From NCBI RefSeq assembly GCF_016026235.1, contig NZ_CP065613.1: DNA of 64,000 bases; one strand, written 5' to 3'. The notes under the pieces are model-generated. The model made no database searches. It worked only from the letters and a program-made list of their open reading frames with translations, and had not been told where the DNA came from. The stretch is from Escherichia coli (lineage in GTDB: Bacteria > Pseudomonadota > Gammaproteobacteria > Enterobacterales > Enterobacteriaceae). Below, piece after piece: positions 11,152 to 64,000 of this stretch; position 1 is the first letter of the stretch, and every line of letters starts with the position of its first letter. Made by a program: the position numbers and the translations under genes.

Positions 11152-11673
11152 TTAGTTGCTTTCCAGCATGTGAATAATCTGGTTAGCGACCACTTTAGCG
11201 CTTTGATCATCAGTACGAATGGTCACGTCGGCAATCTCTTCATACAGCGGATTGCGTTCATTGGCCAACGCTTCCAGAACTTCACGTGGCGGTGTTTCAA
11301 CGTGCAGCAACGGGCGTTTTTTATCACGCTGCGTGCGTGCAAGTTGCTTTTCGATGGTCGTTTCAAGATAAACGACAACGCCACGAGCGGAAAGACGGTT
11401 ACGCGTTTCACGGGATTTCACAGAGCCGCCGCCAGTAGCCAGCACAATACCCTGTTTCTCGGTCAACTCATTGATGACCTTTTCTTCGCGATCGCGGAAG
11501 CCTTCTTCGCCTTCTAAATCGAAAACCCAGCCCACATCAGCTCCGGTTCGTTTCTCAATCTCTTGATCGGAATCGTAAAATTCCATATTGAGTTGTTGAG
11601 CTAACTGGCGCCCAATAGTGCTTTTTCCGGCACCCATAGGCCCAACCAGAAAGATATTGCGTTTCTCTGCCAT
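11152..11673 (-). CDS. aroK: shikimate kinase I
   Basis: Track ORF 11152..11874 trimmed to ATG at 11671-11673 ([28 protein letters not shown]..., 173 aa) with a Walker A motif. Confidence 0.95.
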
Positions 11674-12073
11674 TTTTTCGGTACTACTAAGACTATTCGT
11701 TAATGATAAACCCGCTTCGCTCAGAGAGCGCCGCAGGACATGAACTGAAACCTCATAAGATATTGCGAGAGTCAGACTGAAAATTATCTCAATACTCCAG
11801 CGGGTTTGGCAACTGAATAAATCACCCATCCCTCTGCATATCTGGTCGCTGCAAGCGCGCTGCCTTGCTACCACCGCTCTGGCGATAAATCACCGGGTAA
11901 GATTAGCGTAAAAAAGACAGCAAAATGCCGCCTGAATGATAAATCATCATCATGGAACGCAGGCAGCGAAGAGCACCAACTCTCAAATCGGTACTCCTTG
12001 TATGCTAAATACCTGCGCGCGTCAAATAGATGAAACACGTTCAGCGTAAAAACATTACCGCTTTTACGGCTGT

Positions 12074-13312
12074 TTACTCACTGGAAACCAGTCGTGGCGT
12101 GATAAACACCACTAACTCGCGTCGTTCATCTTCTTTTCCGTCATGACGAAATAATTGCCCGAACCAGGGAATGTCGCCAAGCAACGGCACGCTATCCTGA
12201 CCCGATTTATTTTTACGGGTAAAAATGCCGCCCAGCGCCAACGTTTCTCCGCTTTTGACCTCGACCTGCGTTTCGATCTCCTGCTTATCAATCGCCAGCA
12301 CTTCGCCATCGGCCTGCTGTAGCACCTGCCCCGGAACGTTCTGGCTGATGTGTAATTTCAGCCGGATGCGACCTTTTTGTAACACCGTGGGCGTGACCTC
12401 CATCCCCAGGACGGCCTCTTTAAATTCCACCGACGTCGCGCCACTTTCCCCGCTGGAAACCTGATATGGAATTTCGCTCCCCTGTTTAATGCTGGCAGGT
12501 TGAAGATGTGAGGCCAGCAGACGCGGACTGGCGATAATATCCAGCTGCTGTTTTTGTTCGAGCGCGGAAAGCTCAAGATCCAGCAAACGTCCGTTGATGC
12601 GCCCAATGTTAAAACCGACATGCGTTGTCGCCGTCGCTACGGAGAGGTCGCTACCAAGCGTGGTGACTTGCCCAACGCCACCAGCGTGTTGCGCATCGGC
12701 CAGCGTCCATTTCACGCCTAACTCACGCAAACTTTTTTCATTAATGGTGACAATATGCGCCGACAGCTCAACCTGCCCGACCGGCAGATCCATTTGCGCT
12801 ACCCATTGTTCAAGCGCGCTTAACGCCGTTTTGTTATCTCGCAGCAAAAGGCGATTGGTGCGTTTATCGACGGTCATACTCCCTTTGGCACTCAGTAGCT
12901 TCTCCCCCGCTTTCGCCAGCTCTCCGGCGTCGGCGTATTGCAGAGTAATATTGCGATTTTCCAGCGGCAGATTTGCCTGCGCCCGCGCCTGCTCCGCCTC
13001 CTGACGGGCGATATTGTCATTCTGCCAGGCAACGGAATGCACTGAGAGAATGTTGCCCTCCTGGCGCGTTATCAGTCCGGCGCTTTTCACTACAGTTTGT
13101 AATGCCTGCTTCCAGGGAACATCTGTTAGATGTAACGACACCGTACCGCTGACGTCTGGCGACACCACCAGGTTCAACTTCTCCTGTTCAGCCAGCGCCT
13201 GCAACACCTGAGCTACCGGAACGTCATCCACCATCAGCGTCACTTTTTGCGGCTTTGCCGCCTGTACGCCGGGTATCAGCATCAACAGTAGTGCGGCTAT
13301 CCATTGCTTCAT
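12074..13312 (-). CDS. hofQ: outer-membrane secretin of the cryptic DNA-uptake (type IV pilus-like) system
   Basis: 412-aa ORF MKQWIAALLLMLIPGVQAAKPQ... with a signal peptide and secretin-like C-terminal region. Confidence 0.9.
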   Translation of the reverse strand: MKQWIAALLLMLIPGVQAAKPQKVTLMVDDVPVAQVLQALAEQEKLNLVVSPDVSGTVSLHLTDVPWKQALQTVVKSAGLITRQEGNILSVHSVAWQNDNIARQEAEQARAQANLPLENRNITLQYADAGELAKAGEKLLSAKGSMTVDKRTNRLLLRDNKTALSALEQWVAQMDLPVGQVELSAHIVTINEKSLRELGVKWTLADAQHAGGVGQVTTLGSDLSVATATTHVGFNIGRINGRLLDLELSALEQKQQLDIIASPRLLASHLQPASIKQGSEIPYQVSSGESGATSVEFKEAVLGMEVTPTVLQKGRIRLKLHISQNVPGQVLQQADGEVLAIDKQEIETQVEVKSGETLALGGIFTRKNKSGQDSVPLLGDIPWFGQLFRHDGKEDERRELVVFITPRLVSSE

Positions 13313-13628
13313 TTGTATCTCCTTGCCGTTGCCACAACCATTGTGGCGGTTCGCAGTTTGTCCCGGTACCCAGCGTTAGTACGTCTGGCGTCAGCTGTAA
13401 AATTGTCCAGCCGTTTTCCAGCACATCGTTTTGCTGCACCCGTCGCCATTTCTTTTGCCCGTCTTTTATTACACCGATGATGCGCTCGCCTCGCCCTACC
13501 ATCCCCTGATAGCGCCACTGGCTAAGTTCGCTAATCCGGCATAGATCTTCCGGCGGTTTAAAAGGGTCACGCATACCGGTTAAAAGGCACAATGCAATAC
13601 CTGCCAACAACCAGCGTTTAACCCTCAT
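13224..13628 (-). CDS. hofP: DNA-utilisation protein HofP (PilP-like)
   Basis: Track ORF trimmed to ATG at 13626-13628 (MRVKRWLLAGIALCLLTG..., 134 aa); its 3' end overlaps the hofQ start. Confidence 0.8.
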   Translation of the reverse strand: MRVKRWLLAGIALCLLTGMRDPFKPPEDLCRISELSQWRYQGMVGRGERIIGVIKDGQKKWRRVQQNDVLENGWTILQLTPDVLTLGTGTNCEPPQWLWQRQGDTNEAMDSRTTVDADTRRTGGKAAKSDADGG

Positions 13629-14058
13629 GCGGCGTCTCCAGTTGTAGCGTGAACAAAAGATCATCACCTTCCACGCTTAATGAAAAACGGCTCACGCTGA
13701 CGTTGCGCTCTGCCAGCCGTGTAAATGCCGACGGCACTGCTTCCCACAGCGTTTTCAACGCCAACTCGCCTCCCTGCGCGGATGGATGCCAGAAAACCAG
13801 TTGTGCGCCGGGCAACTGAAAATCCAGTGGCGAAAAGGGCAGCGTTTTTTCTTCGCTGAAGGGAGTGGTGTCTACCAGGCGATACAGTGCGGCCCACTGC
13901 TGGTGATGACTTGCCCGTAGTCGAATTAATGCGTCGCTCTCTTCATGGTGTGTCGATGACAGAAAAATGAGCGTAACTAACATCAGCAACCAGACTGCCC
14001 AGCAAAACTGGCGGAGGCGGGGTGATGTGGCGAACCACCAGTCAAAGAACATGTTCAT
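13618..14058 (-). CDS. hofO: DNA-utilisation protein HofO (PilO-like)
   Basis: 146-aa ORF MNMFFDWWFATSPRLRQFCWAVWLLMLVT...; operon position. Confidence 0.85.
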   Translation of the reverse strand: MNMFFDWWFATSPRLRQFCWAVWLLMLVTLIFLSSTHHEESDALIRLRASHHQQWAALYRLVDTTPFSEEKTLPFSPLDFQLPGAQLVFWHPSAQGGELALKTLWEAVPSAFTRLAERNVSVSRFSLSVEGDDLLFTLQLETPHEG

Positions 14059-14581
14059 CGCTAACCTTCCTTGTTAACTGATACTCAAATTGCCAGCGTC
14101 CCTGCGCATCCTGCTGCGTGGCTCCCCGCTGATTGAGATGAAAAGACGCATCCTGGCGGAGTGACGTTTCTAGTGCGTTTAACGCGGTAATGCTTGTTGT
14201 CAGCCCCTTGATCTCCAGCGTTCCCTGCTGCCAGCTTATCGTTGTCAGCCAGGCGTGCTCGGGTAAAAGCGCCGCCAGTGCTTCCAGCGCAGATTGCCAG
14301 TCGCGGGTAAATTGTCGCTGGCGCTGCCTTTGCAAACGCTGCTCACGAATTTGTTGGCGCTCCAGCAAACGTGGTTTCGTTATCTGTAAGCTGCGGGCGA
14401 GTTGTTGTTCCGCCTGAAGCAAAACGGCGTCTATGCGCGCTTCGGCGCTGCCTGTCAGACGCAGTATTAGCGTTATCCCGACGGCCAGCAGCAGAGGCGC
14501 AACGAACATCAGCAACCAGAAACGAAGAAAAGCGGTCCGGCGTTGCTGTCGCCAGGGCAAAAAATTAATTGGCGGGTTCAT
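14042..14581 (-). CDS. hofN: DNA-utilisation protein HofN (PilN-like)
   Basis: 179-aa ORF MNPPINFLPWRQQRRTAFLRFWLLMFVAPLLLAV...; operon position. Confidence 0.85.
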   Translation of the reverse strand: MNPPINFLPWRQQRRTAFLRFWLLMFVAPLLLAVGITLILRLTGSAEARIDAVLLQAEQQLARSLQITKPRLLERQQIREQRLQRQRQRQFTRDWQSALEALAALLPEHAWLTTISWQQGTLEIKGLTTSITALNALETSLRQDASFHLNQRGATQQDAQGRWQFEYQLTRKVSDEHVL

Positions 14582-15360
14582 CAGTACGCCTTCCCAAGCG
14601 CCAGCCCCAGCGCGATGGCAAAGTCTCCACCAGGCGGCGGTAGCGGCGGCTGACGAACAGAAACGGCCTCCCAGGGATCAAATCCCCCTTCGCCACATAT
14701 CGCGACGCTTTCGGGATCAACGGATAACGCTGCCGCCAGCTCCTTCGCGCTAGTCATCCCCACCGCCAGTTTGCGCCCCCAGCGATAGCGTGTCGCCCAC
14801 AGCCACTGTTCGTTATCACGCCAGGCCAGACATTGCTGATGAGAAGGTAAAAAAGGCAGGAATCGCTGTAATGCACTGGCATCCGGGGTGATCGCACTAA
14901 CATGAACACGCAACCTTTCTGCCAGAGTAAGCAGCGTTGCCAGCTCTTTGCTTTGCGCGGCAGTCACGTTATAGGCGGGACTGAGTGAGTCTTCGCTGTA
15001 ATCGAAGCGCAGGGAGTCCGGATCCATATCCAGCTCGCGGGCCATCGTCCCGGAAAGCCAGGCCGTTTGCTCCCGCTCACCGAGGGACATCGACGGGCGC
15101 GGAAATGACCGCTGTAATGTGCGACTGGCGGGAAACGCCAACATAATGTGATGACGCTGCGGCAGTTCGCGACTCCACGGTAACAACGTTTTAGCCAGCC
15201 GCTGCGCATCAACAATCCGCCCATCTTTGATAATGTCGTGCGCCAGCGGCAACCGCCACCAGCGTTGCAAAAAGCATTCTTTTGCGCCCCGCACAATAGC
15301 AACCGCTACCGCTTCTTGCTGTTGTAAATGCAAACCAATTTGCCAGATCTTAAATGCCAT
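14581..15360 (-). CDS. hofM: DNA-utilisation protein HofM (PilM-like)
   Basis: Track ORF 14581..15387 trimmed to ATG at 15358-15360 (MAFKIWQIGLHLQQQEAVAVAIV..., 259 aa). Confidence 0.85.
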   Translation of the reverse strand: MAFKIWQIGLHLQQQEAVAVAIVRGAKECFLQRWWRLPLAHDIIKDGRIVDAQRLAKTLLPWSRELPQRHHIMLAFPASRTLQRSFPRPSMSLGEREQTAWLSGTMARELDMDPDSLRFDYSEDSLSPAYNVTAAQSKELATLLTLAERLRVHVSAITPDASALQRFLPFLPSHQQCLAWRDNEQWLWATRYRWGRKLAVGMTSAKELAAALSVDPESVAICGEGGFDPWEAVSVRQPPLPPPGGDFAIALGLALGKAY

Positions 15361-15455
15361 TGTGATGATCTCCTTATCACCCGTCACTCTGACGGGTATA
15401 TCAATGCGTCTGGCTTGCCTTTATACTACCGCGCGTTTGTTTATAAACTGCCCAA

Positions 15456-18032
15456 ATGAAACTAAATGGGAAATTTCCAGTGAAGTTCGTAAAGTATTTT
15501 TTGATCCTTGCAGTCTGTTGCATTCTGCTGGGAGCAGGCTCGATTTATGGCCTATACCGCTACATCGAGCCACAACTGCCGGATGTGGCGACATTAAAAG
15601 ATGTTCGCCTGCAAATTCCGATGCAGATTTACAGCGCCGATGGCGAGCTGATTGCTCAATACGGTGAGAAACGTCGTATTCCGGTTACGTTGGATCAAAT
15701 CCCACCGGAGATGGTGAAAGCCTTTATCGCGACGGAAGACAGCCGCTTCTACGAGCATCACGGCGTTGACCCGGTGGGGATCTTCCGTGCGGCAAGTGTG
15801 GCGCTGTTCTCCGGCCACGCGTCACAAGGGGCGAGTACCATTACCCAGCAGCTGGCGAGAAATTTCTTCCTCAGTCCAGAACGCACGCTGATGCGTAAGA
15901 TTAAGGAAGTCTTCCTCGCGATTCGCATTGAACAGTTGCTGACGAAAGACGAGATCCTCGAGCTTTATCTGAACAAGATTTACCTCGGTTACCGCGCCTA
16001 TGGTGTCGGTGCTGCGGCACAAGTCTATTTCGGTAAAACGGTCGACCAACTGACGCTGAACGAAATGGCTGTGATCGCCGGGCTGCCGAAAGCGCCTTCC
16101 ACCTTTAATCCGCTCTACTCAATGGATCGTGCCGTCGCGCGGCGTAACGTCGTACTGTCGCGGATGCTGGATGAAGGGTATATCACCCAACAACAGTTCG
16201 ATCAGACACGCACTGAGGCGATTAACGCTAACTATCACGCGCCGGAGATTGCTTTCTCTGCGCCGTACCTGAGCGAAATGGTGCGCCAGGAGATGTATAA
16301 CCGTTATGGCGAAAGTGCCTATGAAGACGGTTATCGCATTTACACCACCATCACCCGCAAAGTGCAGCAGGCCGCACAGCAGGCGGTACGTAATAACGTG
16401 CTGGACTACGACATGCGCCACGGCTATCGCGGCCCGGCAAATGTGCTGTGGAAAGTGGGCGAGTCGGCGTGGGATAACAACAAGATTACCGATACGCTGA
16501 AGGCGCTGCCGACCTATGGTCCGCTGCTGCCTGCCGCAGTCACCAGCGCCAATCCTCAGGAAGCGACGGCAATGCTGGCGGACGGGTCGACCGTCGCATT
16601 GAGTATGGAAGGCGTTCGCTGGGCGCGTCCTTACCGTTCGGATACTCAGCAGGGACCGACGCCGCGTAAAGTGACCGATGTTCTGCAAACGGGTCAGCAA
16701 ATCTGGGTTCGTCAGGTTGGCGATGCATGGTGGCTGGCACAAGTGCCGGAAGTGAACTCGGCACTGGTGTCGATCAATCCGCAAAACGGTGCCGTTATGG
16801 CGCTGATCGGTGGCTTTGATTTCAATCAGAGCAAGTTTAACCGCGCCACCCAGGCACTGCGTCAGGTGGGTTCCAACATCAAACCGTTCCTCTACACCGC
16901 GGCGATGGATAAAGGTCTGACGCTGGCAAGTATGTTGAACGATGTGCCAATTTCTCGCTGGGATGCAGGTGCCGGTTCTGACTGGCAGCCGAAGAACTCA
17001 CCACCACAGTATGCTGGTCCAATTCGCTTACGTCAGGGGCTGGGTCAGTCGAAAAACGTGGTGATGGTACGCGCAATGCGGGCGATGGGCGTCGACTACG
17101 CTGCAGAATATCTGCAACGCTTCGGCTTCCCGGCGCAAAACATTGTCCACACCGAATCGCTGGCGCTGGGTTCAGCGTCCTTCACCCCAATGCAGGTGGC
17201 GCGCGGCTACGCGGTCATGGCGAACGGTGGCTTCCTGGTGGACCCGTGGTTTATCAGCAAAATTGAAAACGATCAGGGCGGCGTGATTTTCGAAGCGAAA
17301 CCGAAAGTAGCCTGCCCGGAATGCGATATTCCGGTGATTTACGGTGATACGCAGAAATCGAACGTGCTGGAAAATAACGATGTTGAAGATGTCGCTATCT
17401 CCCGCGAGCAGCAGAATGTTTCTGTACCAATGCCGCAGCTGGAGCAGGCAAATCAGGCGTTAGTGGCGAAGACTGGCGCGCAGGAGTACGCACCGCACGT
17501 CATCAACACTCCGCTGGCATTCCTGATTAAGAGTGCTTTGAACACCAATATCTTTGGTGAGCCAGGCTGGCAGGGTACTGGCTGGCGTGCAGGTCGTGAT
17601 TTGCAGCGTCGCGATATCGGCGGGAAAACCGGGACCACTAACAGTTCGAAAGATGCGTGGTTCTCGGGTTACGGTCCGGGCGTTGTGACCTCGGTCTGGA
17701 TTGGCTTTGATGATCACCGTCGTAATCTCGGTCATACAACGGCTTCCGGAGCGATTAAAGATCAGATATCAGGTTACGAAGGCGGTGCCAAGAGCGCCCA
17801 GCCTGCATGGGACGCTTATATGAAAGCCGTTCTTGAAGGTGTGCCGGAGCAGCCGCTGACGCCGCCGCCGGGTATTGTGACGGTGAAAATCGATCGCAGC
17901 ACCGGGCAGTTAGCTAATGGTGGCAACAGCCGCGAAGAGTATTTCATCGAAGGTACGCAGCCGACACAACAGGCGGTGCACGAGGTGGGAACGACCATTA
18001 TCGATAATGGCGAGGCACAGGAATTGTTCTGA
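15456..18032 (+). CDS. mrcA: penicillin-binding protein 1A (bifunctional glycosyltransferase/transpeptidase)
   Basis: 858-aa ORF with a membrane anchor, glycosyltransferase region (EDSRFYEHHGVD...) and transpeptidase region. The start may instead be the in-frame GTG at 15480, giving the 850-aa form I recall. Confidence 0.95.
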   Translation: MKLNGKFPVKFVKYFLILAVCCILLGAGSIYGLYRYIEPQLPDVATLKDVRLQIPMQIYSADGELIAQYGEKRRIPVTLDQIPPEMVKAFIATEDSRFYEHHGVDPVGIFRAASVALFSGHASQGASTITQQLARNFFLSPERTLMRKIKEVFLAIRIEQLLTKDEILELYLNKIYLGYRAYGVGAAAQVYFGKTVDQLTLNEMAVIAGLPKAPSTFNPLYSMDRAVARRNVVLSRMLDEGYITQQQFDQTRTEAINANYHAPEIAFSAPYLSEMVRQEMYNRYGESAYEDGYRIYTTITRKVQQAAQQAVRNNVLDYDMRHGYRGPANVLWKVGESAWDNNKITDTLKALPTYGPLLPAAVTSANPQEATAMLADGSTVALSMEGVRWARPYRSDTQQGPTPRKVTDVLQTGQQIWVRQVGDAWWLAQVPEVNSALVSINPQNGAVMALIGGFDFNQSKFNRATQALRQVGSNIKPFLYTAAMDKGLTLASMLNDVPISRWDAGAGSDWQPKNSPPQYAGPIRLRQGLGQSKNVVMVRAMRAMGVDYAAEYLQRFGFPAQNIVHTESLALGSASFTPMQVARGYAVMANGGFLVDPWFISKIENDQGGVIFEAKPKVACPECDIPVIYGDTQKSNVLENNDVEDVAISREQQNVSVPMPQLEQANQALVAKTGAQEYAPHVINTPLAFLIKSALNTNIFGEPGWQGTGWRAGRDLQRRDIGGKTGTTNSSKDAWFSGYGPGVVTSVWIGFDDHRRNLGHTTASGAIKDQISGYEGGAKSAQPAWDAYMKAVLEGVPEQPLTPPPGIVTVKIDRSTGQLANGGNSREEYFIEGTQPTQQAVHEVGTTIIDNGEAQELF

Positions 18033-36734: not shown

Positions 36735-38226
<1,492 letters not shown>

Positions 38227-53217: not shown

Positions 53218-54060
<843 letters not shown>

Positions 54061-58269: not shown

Positions 58270-59787
58270 TTAAGGTAGCGTCTTATACATCGGGACATAA
58301 CCTACATCTTCCACCAAACTCTGTCCCTGCGGCGTTAAAAACCACTCCAACAATTTTTGTGTCTCTGACGTCGTATTTTCCCGCGTTACCATAAAGGCAT
58401 CGACGATATAGGGATATTTGCCGTTGCGAATGTTTTCGGCAGTCGGTGCAATACCGTTAATCGCTAGCAGTTTTATATTTTTATCGGCGTTCATTTGTGT
58501 TGCGTAATAACGGAAGGTGTAACCTATTGCGTTGTTTGTATTACGGTATTCGGCAACGACTTTAATCATTCCCTCCATCATACTTGCCACTTCTGTTTCC
58601 TGCGGCGAGATCATGCGGACATTTTTCATGACCTGGGATTGCATCACCGTCTGGCTGCCAGAGTCTTCCGGGCGCTGCCAGGTCTGGATCTCCTGATCGT
58701 TACCGCCAACAGTACGCCAGTTGGTAATTGCACCACTGAAAATGTCACGCACCTGTTGTTCAGTCAGGGAATTAACCGGATTATCCGCATTGACGATGAA
58801 AACGAATGCTTCACGGGCAAAGGGGGTGTACAGCAAAGTGACACCAGATTCCTTTGCACGTTTTTTTTGCCCACCGGAAGGTTGCGCCACAAAAATAATA
58901 TCAGCATCGCCCTTAACGATTTTGTTATATGCTTCTGGCGTACGAGAGTTTTCCAGATAATCCCAAACGTGAAAATCCTCTGGTATTACACTTAATGCAT
59001 AAAATGCAGAAGCATAAATTGGGTACGCAGCCGTGGCGCCATCGATTCGCGGCCAGTTTTGCCTAAACTGAATTTGCGGTTTGCCACGCAGTGGCGTCAG
59101 TCGATTATTGAGTTTATCGGGTCGCCAGGCCCAGATATCAATATTTTCGCGTACACCGACACCAGGATTTTGCTGCTTATATAAATGGGCCTGATACCCA
59201 GCGACAATACCAAGTAAGAGAAGTAGAAACAGGAGTAAGTTACGGCAACGTAGTCCGGACGTGCCGGATAAAGGATATCTGGTCGGCCAGGCGTATCCCA
59301 GCGAAAAACTGATATGCGCCCCAACGGGAATAATGACCATCCACCAGTACTCACCACCCACTAATGAGACTAAAAAAACGCCCAACCAGGGAAGCATAAG
59401 GTTTGCCAACCAACCAGCTCCCATCTGGCGAAATTGATAATCTGCCAGATGTAGCGTGATTATCCAGCCAACCAGGGTTAATAGCGCGGGTAAGAGAAAA
59501 AAGCATTGCCGCCAGACGGCTATTTCTCTGTTTTCTGGCGCGCTATCACCGGCCCACACGCGACCAGAGAAAAATATTATTACCGCCCCCAGCGTCAGCA
59601 TAAAGACGTTGAGTAGAAGATAAATTGTTGGCGTGATAAGGATATTACAAACTTCAATAATACCGGTAAGCCCGACACCCAGCATGGCAACAACCGCTGC
59701 CAAAAATTGCGCCAGTATGGGGATGCCGAAAAAAGTCATTATCAGCGAGGTCAAAATCCATTTTCTATTTGGCATCATTCTGTCCAT
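58270..59787 (-). CDS. hypothetical membrane-anchored protein with C-terminal PstS/PBP-like periplasmic domain (island ORF 1 of 4)
   Basis: 505-aa ORF: the N-terminal ~200 aa contains about six hydrophobic helices; the C-terminal region (...ADNPVNSLTEQQVRDIFSGAITNWRTVGGNDQEIQTWQRPEDSGSQ...) resembles the phosphate-binding-protein-like (PstS) fold signature. ATG at 59785-59787 is preceded by AGGAAG. Confidence 0.65.
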   Translation of the reverse strand: MDRMMPNRKWILTSLIMTFFGIPILAQFLAAVVAMLGVGLTGIIEVCNILITPTIYLLLNVFMLTLGAVIIFFSGRVWAGDSAPENREIAVWRQCFFLLPALLTLVGWIITLHLADYQFRQMGAGWLANLMLPWLGVFLVSLVGGEYWWMVIIPVGAHISFSLGYAWPTRYPLSGTSGLRCRNLLLFLLLLLGIVAGYQAHLYKQQNPGVGVRENIDIWAWRPDKLNNRLTPLRGKPQIQFRQNWPRIDGATAAYPIYASAFYALSVIPEDFHVWDYLENSRTPEAYNKIVKGDADIIFVAQPSGGQKKRAKESGVTLLYTPFAREAFVFIVNADNPVNSLTEQQVRDIFSGAITNWRTVGGNDQEIQTWQRPEDSGSQTVMQSQVMKNVRMISPQETEVASMMEGMIKVVAEYRNTNNAIGYTFRYYATQMNADKNIKLLAINGIAPTAENIRNGKYPYIVDAFMVTRENTTSETQKLLEWFLTPQGQSLVEDVGYVPMYKTLP

Positions 59788-59870
59788 TCTTCCTGAATGA
59801 CGGAATTATACTCCCCGAGAACCCTCGCCCCCTCTGGACACTTTTCCGAAATGATGGCGAAAAAAAACGG

Positions 59871-59882
59871 GACCCTTTGGCC
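59871..59882. repeat. left copy of the 12-bp target-site duplication flanking IS4
   Basis: GACCCTTTGGCC, identical to 61309-61320. Confidence 0.9.
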
Positions 59883-61308
59883 TAATGCCAGTCAGTTAAG
59901 CAACTGACTGGCTCTTTTTCGGGGCTGTGGGGTATTTCCAGGGCCTCTCCTTTACCACTCTCGGGAAGGCCCTTCCCCTTCTCGTCGGTAATTTCACAAG
60001 TTGTCCCATACTTGCAAGATCGCGCATCAGCTCCGGTATACGTCCCGGTGAAGCGCCCTGCAATGTCATCAGCATTCTCATCACCATTCCGCATGATTCT
60101 GAGAAACTCAGTTGATTCGGCCAGTAACCTTTCAGATGTTCCGCCATTTTAATCATCTGATATCTCACCAGATTATAAGCCAGTAAGACACCCCACAGCT
60201 CTTGCTCCACAAGCTCCGGCTTTTTACTTCTCAGCGTCAGCCTGCTCAGTTGCATCGTCTGTTTTATCTCCCTGTATCCCAGTTCGATTTCCCAGCGATG
60301 ACTGTACAGATCCGCCATTTCTCCTCCGGGGAAGCGCATGGCGTCCGTCATCGACGTCAGCAGATGGCAGACTTTTCCTTTGCGCGTCACGGTCAGCAGG
60401 CGGGCTGTCACTTCATTTCCCAGTCCCGGCCACTTTTTTCGTGCCTGCGGGCTGGTTTTCAGCTTCACCAGATGATCGCCTTTACCCAGTTTTCTGAGCT
60501 CTTCATATTGCGCTCCCTTTCTGAGAGGTATCATCCAGTGGCGGTGTTCTCCCGCCAGGCTCCAGGCATTTAACAGTCCCAGTGAGTAATAACCTTTATC
60601 CATTAACGTCAGAGTGTTATCGCCGGTTTGTTCTATAAGTTGCTCAGCAAGCTCATTTTCGCTGTTCTTCATCGTGCCGAAGGCTGCAGCCGTCAGCAGA
60701 TGGCTGGTCAGTTCCATCTGGCAGACCATTTTGACCTGCGGGTAGAGCGCCGGGTTCCCGGCATGTGTCTGGCGGGGGAAGGCTGCATCGTTCTCTGGTG
60801 TATCCGGTGTGCGCCAGAACACACCATCGATGGCCAGCAGGGTCAGGCCGCACCAGTGCGGATGCGGCGTGGCGTTATGCCAGAGCTGCGCTGTTTTCGT
60901 GAACACGCGGCGGACAGCCTCACTTCCCAGGCGCTGGCGGGCCTGAATAACGGCACTGGGGGCAACGAAGGGGCGATTGCCCGGCAGCATGATGTCCAGG
61001 CGATTCACAATCTGGTGAAGAGGTTCTTTACGCTCAAGCGCCATGCCAACAATACACCAGACCATCATTTCGAGGGGAAGACGGCGCTTGCGTAGCGTTA
61101 CAGTACCTGATTCGGCAAGGCAACGAGAGATGAGTTCGGGGTCGAGGTAATCCCCCAGAGAAGTCAGTGGGTTACGCAGAGAATCGTAACGGGATACCAG
61201 ATCAAGAGCCTGTCCAATGTGCATAAAAAAATCCGGAAACAAGTGAGCGTTTCCGGATTCTTACACAGCCACTGGATCGGTCAACTGATCCTTAACTGAT
61301 CGGCATTA
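59883..61308 (-). mobile_element. IS4: complete IS4 insertion sequence (1426 bp)
   Basis: Terminal 18-bp imperfect inverted repeats TAATGCCAGTCAGTTAAG (left) and TAATGCCGATCAGTTAAG (right, reverse complement), 16 of 18 matching; one transposase ORF inside; flanked by a perfect 12-bp direct repeat; 1426 bp equals the canonical IS4 length. Confidence 0.95.
59896..61224 (-). CDS. insG: IS4 transposase (DDE)
   Basis: Track ORF 59896..61242 trimmed to [48 protein letters not shown]..., 442 aa, recognised as IS4 transposase InsG. Confidence 0.93.
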
Positions 61309-61320
61309 GACCCTTTGGCC
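61309..61320. repeat. right copy of the 12-bp target-site duplication flanking IS4
   Basis: GACCCTTTGGCC, identical to 59871-59882. Confidence 0.9.
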
Positions 61321-61341
61321 CCGTTCTATTTATTGGTGAAA

Positions 61342-63807
<2,466 letters not shown>

Positions 63808-64000
63808 CTATTTCAAGCGATAGTAAAGCTCACGGTACGACTTCGCCGCGACCTGCCAGCTAAAATCCATTGCCATAGCCTGACGTTGCACAAACCGCCA
63901 CAGTGAAGGACGGGACCACAGTACAAAAGCACGTCGAATAGCCCGTAATAGCGACCAGGCATTACTATCTTCAAAGACAAACCCACTGGCGACGCCATCT
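63808..64000 (-). CDS. glgA: glycogen synthase, 3' terminal 64 codons (gene continues beyond the window end)
   Basis: Hand translation of the minus strand ending at the stop at 63808-63810 gives ...[63 protein letters not shown], matching the GlgA C-terminus. The track ORF 63813..63998 is in a different frame. Confidence 0.85.

Follow-up and report, generated by a model that had tools for sequence, protein, structure and literature searches.

We analyzed a 64,000-nucleotide stretch of Escherichia coli DNA (contig NZ_CP065613.1; here called the window) in which five co-oriented hof genes, in the order M-N-O-P-Q, lie on the minus strand at a locus that is conserved among enterobacteria and flanked by mrcA and aroK. 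These genes are hofM (14581..15360; 259 aa, PilM-like), hofN (14042..14581; 179 aa, PilN-like), hofO (13618..14058; 146 aa), hofP (13224..13628; 134 aa) and hofQ (12074..13312; 412 aa), the last of which was recognized as a PilQ-type outer-membrane secretin by its open reading frame, its PGAP name and its profile matches. Internal stops are absent from all five frames, and all five protein lengths equal those of the K-12 proteins. The genes overlap tightly, i.e., the last 89 nt of hofP overlap the start of hofQ, hofO overlaps hofP by 11 nt and hofN overlaps hofO by 17 nt, and the stop codon of hofM shares 1 nt with the start of hofN (ATGA). PGAP gives the same hof coordinates for NZ_CP065615.1, a near-identical genome. 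This annotated record differs from the window by 29 SNPs over 2097-59013 and, as both are collinear over this interval, its coordinates transfer to the window; the annotated record, unlike the window, also has insertions of IS5 and of IS2 and a stop in glpG.

A Shine-Dalgarno (SD) match was found at each hof start, including the hofQ start inside hofP (-6.4 to -9.3 kcal/mol). The placement of the hofQ start within hofP is backed by an SD of -8.5 kcal/mol and by an N-terminal signal-peptide-like sequence, MKQWIAALLLMLIPGVQA. The SD of the hofM ATG at 15360 scores -9.3 kcal/mol, as compared to +0.6 kcal/mol for the in-frame GTG upstream at 15387.

HofQ matched the NCBIfam model NF007851 ("DNA uptake porin HofQ") over positions 1-412 of 412 with 856 bits; it also matched TIGR02515 (PilQ; 448 bits) and showed the Pfam domains STN, Secretin_N and Secretin. 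Residues 3-134 of HofP correspond to positions 1-132 of the 132 in the Pfam HofP model PF10748 (267 bits), and HofO and HofN matched the HofO domain PF25319 (86 bits) and PilN PF05137 (39 bits), respectively, all three above cutoff. For HofM, Pfam gave T2SSL alone, and this below threshold (17 bits versus a cutoff of 25.5); the identity of this protein rests on the 255 of 259 residues that equal K-12 HofM and on the PGAP name. Judged by sequence, hofMNOPQ is the usual cluster conserved in E. coli, homologous to the PilMNOPQ module (alignment and secretin) of type IV pili.

Comparison of the hof cluster with K-12

The K-12 genes hofMNOPQ (yrfD-yrfC-yrfB-yrfA-hofQ), which are homologous to H. 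influenzae comABCDE and to PilMNOPQ, share the position between aroK and mrcA, and in K-12 strain MG1655 the gene order, the lengths and the 89-, 11-, 17- and 1-nt overlaps all equal those of the window. As the K-12 architecture is exactly the same, the tight hof overlaps say nothing about the strain from which the window comes. The two clusters differ by 55 scattered nucleotide substitutions and show no structural difference; hofP is 100% identical to K-12 at the nucleotide level, and HofQ, HofO, HofN and HofM, with unchanged lengths, carry 3, 6, 3 and 4 amino acid differences, respectively.

The 360 bp located 5' of hofM are identical to K-12. This region includes the hofM (yrfD) upstream regulatory fragment (15509..15635; no strand assigned), in which both EMSA primers of PMC1635313 are located. 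In K-12, the yrfD upstream fragment binds CRP, yrfD is induced 16-fold by Sxy, and induction of CRP-S promoters needs the cAMP-CRP signal (PMC1635313). A scan upstream of hofM with the CRP-S consensus found best cores with 3 mismatches, at 15529-15544 and 15610-15625, and the same scan across the window gave fewer matches than in shuffled sequence. The scan is uninformative for such degenerate sites, and we therefore relied on the identity to the tested K-12 region.

Finkel and Kolter in 2001 and Palchevskiy and Finkel in 2006 reportedly found that yhgH/gntX and hof mutants were unable to use DNA as a nutrient. The same inability of these mutants is stated, through citations, in a passage of PMC9273947. 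The dependence of DNA uptake or use on hofQ has been demonstrated in K-12 only (PMC3330819).

The gntX lesion

The plus strand of the window carries gntX (comF/yhgH), for which tblastn placed the ancestral frame at 37543..38226 (227 codons, broken at codon 9). Its 5' end reads ATG CTA ACA GTA CCG GGA TTA TGC TGA CTA TGC CGA ATG, so that the Trp codon TGG at position 9 is replaced by the premature stop TGA (37567..37569; W9*), and the next base is C (i.e., a UGA-C context). A restart ORF of 215 aa runs on the same strand from the ATG of Met13 (37579..38226) and keeps the cysteine knuckles 2-4 and the phosphoribosyltransferase domain. Two structural claims of the original prediction, intact and tightly overlapping hof genes on the one hand and, on the other, a gntX that is cut short by an early stop and reopens as a 215-aa ORF, were hence both borne out. 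In K-12, a collinear 227-aa gntX is annotated with TGG as codon 9, and the window equals K-12 from 37237 to 37568, an interval that spans the bioH-gntX spacer and the gntX start. Past the stop at residue 9 the frame is collinear and clean, and a second lesion is absent (tblastn); the lack of a second lesion counts against a null or strongly hypomorphic allele and could mean that the mutation is recent or that function is retained.

The ATG of codon 1 (37543) is preceded, at a distance of 7 nt, by an AAGGA SD at 37531-37535 (-5.2 kcal/mol), whereas no SD was found at the restart ATG13 at 37579 (+0.6 kcal/mol). The frame that opens at the SD-preceded ATG1 is interrupted in the window by the TGA at codon 9.

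PGAP labels the 215-aa ORF "DNA utilization protein GntX" and applies no pseudogene tag. The 215-aa product matched the GntX equivalog model NF008616 at model positions 13-227 with 405 bits (cutoff 304), as compared to 432 bits for K-12 GntX, and matched the ComF model TIGR00201 with 273 bits (cutoff 233.55), as compared to 276 bits for K-12 GntX. Acceptance of the 215-aa product by both PGAP and NF008616 is a second observation that counts against a null or strongly hypomorphic allele. As the equivalog model scores this product above its cutoff and pipelines accept it as "GntX", the lesion is invisible in RefSeq. The C-terminal type-I phosphoribosyltransferase domain was detected with PF00156 (32.9 bits; cutoff 26.3), and the PRPP-binding motif VDDVVTTGST is retained in the window. 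The window-specific substitution R85Q was considered as a sign of relaxed selection and dropped, since position 85 varies among orthologues.

The N-terminal cysteine array of GntX consists of four CxxC knuckles (C8/C11, C23/C26, C37/C40 and C51/C54); the double zinc ribbon model PF18912 scored below threshold (22.7 bits). Among 113 enterobacterial GntX orthologues, M1, L2, C8, W9, L10, C11 and M13 are invariant. Across 113 representatives of the ComF family (32-48% identity), C8, C11, C23, C26, C40 and C54 do not vary, and conservation of C37 and C51 is 90% or higher; the first knuckle aligns across the family, and D194, D195, T198, T199 and G200 are conserved in the ComF alignment. In the window, the stop separates C8 from the remainder of the array and initiation at Met13 drops both C8 and C11; only a read-through GntX product would have a complete array. 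Outside the Enterobacteriaceae, position 13 is Q, A, L or D instead of M, and M13 is thus not a conserved alternative start.

Frequency of the TGA allele

An exact 61-mer carrying the TGA was found in 6 of 5,426 complete E. coli genomes, as compared to 3,346 genomes with the wild-type 61-mer; such exact counts miss TGA alleles with a second SNP inside the 61-mer. The W9* allele was also found in FDAARGOS_943, in the Logan assembly SRR13627086 (0 differences over 3,648 nt) and in GCA_031665325.1. In total, at least four independent assemblies of the lineage of the window and five further complete genomes carry it, and since several assemblies of this lineage share the TGA, the allele is real. 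A second clone with W9* comprises five genomes of identical haplotype from Hong Kong, China, South Africa, South Korea and the UK; its local gntX haplotype differs from that of the window lineage. Overall, the W9* TGA allele is rare and lineage-specific.

Counts of contigs with the 215-aa protein were dropped as a measure of prevalence, as two metagenome loci (L012 and L013) have gntX called from Met13 despite an intact TGG. Further truncated or frameshifted gntX products are present in public E. coli data.

Interpretation

GntX, a member of the ComF family, presumably functions in DNA import at the stage that involves the inner membrane and the cytoplasm. With the W9* TGA, most ribosomes should stop once 8 residues have been joined; a minority may reinitiate at AUG13, 10 nt past the stop, and produce a 215-aa GntX missing one of the four knuckles, and a small fraction may decode UGA-C as Trp and produce wild-type GntX. 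The sequence itself shows the stop, the rarity of the allele, the conservation of the lost residues and the missing SD at the restart codon; the translation outcomes and the loss of gntX function are inferred from it. The reading that we favor, with a probability of roughly 0.65, is that the rare W9* allele would render the ComF step null or strongly hypomorphic, with the outer-membrane uptake module otherwise intact. The lesion may be a case of sporadic natural gene decay; E. coli expresses this pathway very poorly in any case. Natural nonsense alleles are common in poorly expressed accessory pathways.

The original prediction had also suggested that the DNA-utilization pathway is partially decayed or differently regulated in this strain. 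Partial decay appears plausible, and is reasonable for the gntX step only, since an invariant CxxC is lost, the restart codon has no ribosome binding site and the zinc finger of H. pylori ComFC is required for DNA internalization (PMC9005727). Different regulation is unsupported, as both promoter regions, i.e., the 360 bp upstream of hofM and the bioH-gntX spacer, equal those of K-12.

It is rather unlikely that DNA utilization is essentially unaffected because Trp read-through of a leaky stop yields enough full-length GntX for a pathway of very low flux. Read-through typically amounts to a few percent or less, and RF2 is more active in non-K-12 strains. On the other hand, the frame downstream of the stop is intact, and UGA with C at position +4 is the least efficient stop context in bacteria (reviewed in PMC5289835). 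In E. coli, Trp-tRNA(Trp) competes with RF2 at UGA and inserts Trp, and this read-through increases with cAMP (cAMP-CRP) in rich medium (PMC10570021); cAMP-CRP is also needed at the CRP-S promoters (PMC1635313). As UGA-C is leaky and insertion of Trp restores the original residue, some wild-type GntX could arise.

We consider it improbable that restarting at Met13 yields useful amounts of the 215-aa protein and that this protein works fully, with a dispensable first CxxC knuckle. Such a restart would be within reach of a ribosome terminating 10 nt upstream, M13 is invariant in the enterobacterial orthologues, the TIGR00201 model begins only at residue 23 of GntX, and gene callers at times choose M13 even where the upstream frame is intact (L012 and L013). 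However, C8 and C11 are invariant in the 113 diverse ComF proteins as well as in the 113 enterobacterial orthologues, ATG13 lacks an SD, M13 is replaced outside the Enterobacteriaceae, and disruption of the ComFC finger in H. pylori abolishes transformation (PMC9005727).

The occurrence of W9* on two haplotypes could also be taken as recurrent, positively selected attenuation of ComF, in which a UGA-C read as Trp would make gntX a low-level, cAMP-tuned gene; we regard this as very doubtful. That Met13 is the true gntX start in all E. coli, with the TGA lying harmlessly in a 5' leader, is more doubtful still: some annotations and metagenome calls do give the 215-aa form with an intact TGG, but M1, L2 and the CWLC motif are invariant in 113/113 orthologues, the first knuckle aligns family-wide, and a proper SD is found at ATG1 and none at ATG13. 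A sequencing or assembly error, which the one-base difference from the common allele might have suggested, is effectively refuted by the same base in at least four independent assemblies of the window lineage and in five more complete genomes.

W9*, by which the ComF step is probably impaired or lost, is an ordinary natural lesion, and no new system is involved; the hof operon and gntX are already known as textbook E. coli competence-gene homologues. The allele provides a ready natural test of the need for the first ComF zinc knuckle. For strains of the window lineage, competence for Sxy-induced DNA uptake and DNA-as-nutrient phenotypes should not be assumed.

Relation to known ComF proteins

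The closest relative is K-12 GntX (YhgH), which lies, as in the window, between bioH and nfuA and has the same promoter-region sequence. From residue 13 onwards, the window and K-12 proteins are at least 98% identical; codon 9 is TGA in the window and TGG in K-12, and the product started at Met13 is without C8 and C11.

The AF2 model of the ancestral 227-aa GntX had a pLDDT of 95.4, and its best match among solved structures was H. pylori ComF (7p0h_A; E 1.8e-7, 212 aligned columns); this fold search confirms the overall fold only. In the model, ancestral GntX is predicted to have the ComFC fold, i.e., a zinc finger, a hood and a phosphoribosyltransferase domain. A sequence and profile search of the PDB with GntX matched H. 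pylori ComF on the phosphoribosyltransferase domain only.

H. pylori ComFC shows 16% sequence identity to GntX and has a single 4-Cys finger (C3, C6, C15 and C18), whereas GntX and most of the sampled ComF proteins have four CxxC knuckles; two zinc sites are predicted in GntX, either of which may be the functional equivalent of the one zinc finger in H. pylori ComFC. The finger of H. pylori ComFC is needed for DNA internalization: Cys-to-Ser changes in it abolished transformation, slowed DNA internalization and reduced membrane association, and the zinc-finger mutant proteins could not be purified (PMC9005727). Like GntX, H. pylori ComFC (7p0h) has a Cys4 zinc finger at its N-terminus and, after it, a phosphoribosyltransferase domain that binds PRPP.

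Relationship of the window to its closest complete genome

The window is a segment of the Escherichia coli chromosome. Gene names were taken from the PGAP annotation of the closest complete genome, FDAARGOS_943 (NZ_CP065615.1), and the gene order runs php-yhfW ... trpS-gph-rpe-dam-damX-aroB-aroK-hofQPONM-mrcA ... bioH-gntX-nfuA-gntT-malQP-malT ... glgP. Window positions 2097-59013 are collinear with NZ_CP065615.1 and differ from it by 29 SNPs. NZ_CP065615.1 also carries an IS5 insertion at the left end and an IS2 insertion at the right end, both absent from the window (1-2096 and 59014-64000, respectively), as well as an internal stop in glpG (listed at window 53919); in the window, glpG is intact (53218-54048, 276 aa) and an uninterrupted 505-aa ORF is found at 58270-59787. 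The window thus originates from a close relative of FDAARGOS_943.

The hofMNOPQ operon and its regulatory regions

Both the ORFs and the PGAP annotation place the five hof genes in precisely the span originally given (12074-15360) and agree that they are uninterrupted. All are encoded on the minus strand without internal stops, i.e., hofQ (12074-13312, 412 aa), hofP (13224-13628, 134 aa), hofO (13618-14058, 146 aa), hofN (14042-14581, 179 aa) and hofM (14581-15360, 259 aa), and their coordinates bear out the proposed tight overlaps (hofP/hofQ, 89 nt; hofO/hofP, 11 nt; hofN/hofO, 17 nt; hofM/hofN, 1 nt). A Shine-Dalgarno (SD) match is present at each start codon (-6.4 to -9.3 kcal/mol), including the hofQ start inside hofP; the N-terminus encoded from this hofQ start resembles a signal peptide. 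In a family scan, HofQ was classified as a PilQ-type secretin (NF007851, 1-412/412), HofN matched PilN, HofO and HofP each matched their own Pfam family, with the HofP match reaching through the tail encoded by the hofP/hofQ overlap, and HofM showed a sub-threshold match only. Compared to K-12 MG1655, the hof genes are identical in length and in all four overlaps, with 4, 3, 6, 0 and 3 amino acid differences in HofM, HofN, HofO, HofP and HofQ, respectively. As K-12 shares these overlaps and the operon is found at a coverage of at least 80% in 5,424 of 5,426 complete E. coli genomes, tight overlap is the norm of the species and is uninformative on this strain. Two tracts are free of SNPs as compared to K-12, i.e., 13167-13680 (the entire hofP gene with the hofP/hofQ overlap) and 11288-12187 (the aroK-hofQ spacer and the adjoining aroK and hofQ ends), within surroundings that are 1.4-2.6% divergent; these tracts suggest either a recombination mosaic or strong constraint.

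The proposal that the pathway is differently regulated was not supported. The 360 bp upstream of hofM, the hofQ-aroK spacer and positions 37237-37568 (the bioH-gntX spacer and gntX start) do not differ from K-12, and these three regions thus provide no sequence evidence for altered regulation. In K-12, Sxy raises the transcription of hofM (yrfD) 16-fold, an induction that depends on CRP and cAMP, and CRP bound weakly to an EMSA fragment upstream of the gene (PMC1635313); this fragment of Cameron & Redfield is located at 15509-15635 in the window. Scanning with a simple CRP-S consensus gave no useful information.

A nonsense codon in gntX

Comparison of the DNA sequence with K-12 confirmed the premature stop in gntX and the 215-aa restart ORF. 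The ancestral frame (37543-38226, 227 codons) is intact apart from codon 9 (37567-37569), which is TGA in the window and TGG in K-12, and the next in-frame ATG, codon 13 (37579), opens the 215-aa ORF. PGAP does not flag this ORF as a pseudogene and names it "DNA utilization protein GntX" because its score against the GntX equivalog model (405 bits) is still above the cutoff (304).

Residues M1, L2, C8, W9, L10, C11 and M13 are invariant in 113 full-length enterobacterial GntX orthologues (66-99% identity), while C8, C11, C23, C26, C40 and C54 are also invariant in 113 diverse ComF representatives (32-48% identity), in which conservation of C37 and C51 reaches at least 90%. GntX thus has four conserved CxxC knuckles, which would form a double zinc ribbon followed by a phosphoribosyltransferase domain; the match to the double zinc ribbon family PF18912 was sub-threshold. 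Judging from the sequence, ATG1 is the true start, with an SD (AAGGA) 7 nt upstream (-5.2 kcal/mol); ATG13 has no SD (+0.6 kcal/mol) and M13 is not conserved outside Enterobacteriaceae. The AlphaFold model of ancestral GntX is confident (pLDDT 95.4), and its best match among solved structures is H. pylori ComF (7p0h). H. pylori ComFC no longer complemented transformation when two of its four finger cysteines were replaced; in finger-cysteine mutants, DNA foci in the periplasm persisted for longer and membrane association was reduced, and the mutant proteins could not be purified (PMC9005727).

Frequency and origin of the TGA allele

An exact 61-mer with TGA was found in 6 of the 5,426 complete E. 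coli genomes and the wild-type 61-mer in 3,346, with the remaining genomes carrying other SNPs inside the 61-mer and hence falling in neither count. As GCA_031665325.1 and a Logan assembly (3,648 nt compared, 0 differences) also encode the same 215-aa protein with the upstream TGA, the TGA is a lineage allele rather than an error. The remaining five of the six complete genomes (Combat13F7, EA13, VTB96935v, PEC414 and AHB21), which originate from three continents (Hong Kong, China, South Africa, South Korea and the UK), are mutually identical over 8 kb. SNPs between this clone and the window flank the stop (changed base at 37569) on both sides (37230-37236 and 37630-37796); the TGG to TGA change is therefore present on two distinct local haplotypes, which would reflect either two origins by recurrent mutation or exchange of a very short tract (< ~400 bp) by recombination.

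Database counts of 215-aa GntX overstate the prevalence of the nonsense allele, since some gene callers begin at Met13 with TGG intact; for example, the gene at 1501-2148 in two JGI metagenome contigs (L012 and L013) was called as 215-aa GntX from Met13 despite an intact upstream TGG frame. Public E. coli data contain further gntX products that are truncated or frameshifted, including proteins with frameshifted N-termini (P0003, P0034, P0039, P0076 and P0084), which indicates that sporadic gntX damage is not unusual; some of the frameshifted products may stem from misassembly of read-derived contigs. In P0003, the start is ATG 37572, which is out of frame, and the gntX frame is regained at residue 21.

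Predicted effect of the TGA allele

We infer that the TGA allele is most likely null or a strong hypomorph (probability approx. 0.65). Most ribosomes would terminate at the UGA, after eight residues. Leaky expression sufficient for function ranks second and is unlikely. In its favor, the base after the stop is C, and UGA followed by C is the least efficient context documented for bacterial termination (PMC5289835); in E. coli, Trp-tRNA(Trp) competes with RF2 at UGA, and reading of UGA as Trp is raised by cAMP-CRP in rich medium (PMC10570021), so that read-through would regenerate authentic wild-type GntX. A functional 215-aa GntX ranks third and is improbable; its synthesis would call for SD-independent reinitiation at AUG13 and yield a protein without knuckle 1.

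Other lesions and pathway context

A second pseudogene within the same 64 kb is yhfW (phosphopentomutase-like; 1216-2442, minus strand), which is interrupted by a TAG at codon 133 (2044-2046) in the window; in FDAARGOS_943, an IS5 insertion additionally splits the gene. An unrelated 50 kb of the latter genome (NZ_CP065615.1, 100000-149999) contains a truncated gene next to an ISNCY transposase, an incomplete yfaZ, and yfaL split by IS5, suggesting that FDAARGOS_943 is an IS-active, pseudogene-rich strain. The gntT-malQ spacer of the window (~40555) is without a 66-bp segment that both K-12 and the five-genome clone carry; this segment may be a REP-type element. The yhfW nonsense codon, together with the IS5, IS2 and glpG lesions of the sister genome, shows that gntX is one among several gene lesions in the lineage.

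Of the two interpretations originally offered, partial decay and altered regulation, only the former received some support, in that the ComF step may plausibly have decayed. K-12 mutants in hof and yhgH (gntX) reportedly fail to grow on DNA as sole carbon source and are said to lose stationary-phase competitions. A lesion in one gene of a pathway so weakly expressed is unsurprising, and hof/gntX is an already known system with an ordinary natural nonsense polymorphism.
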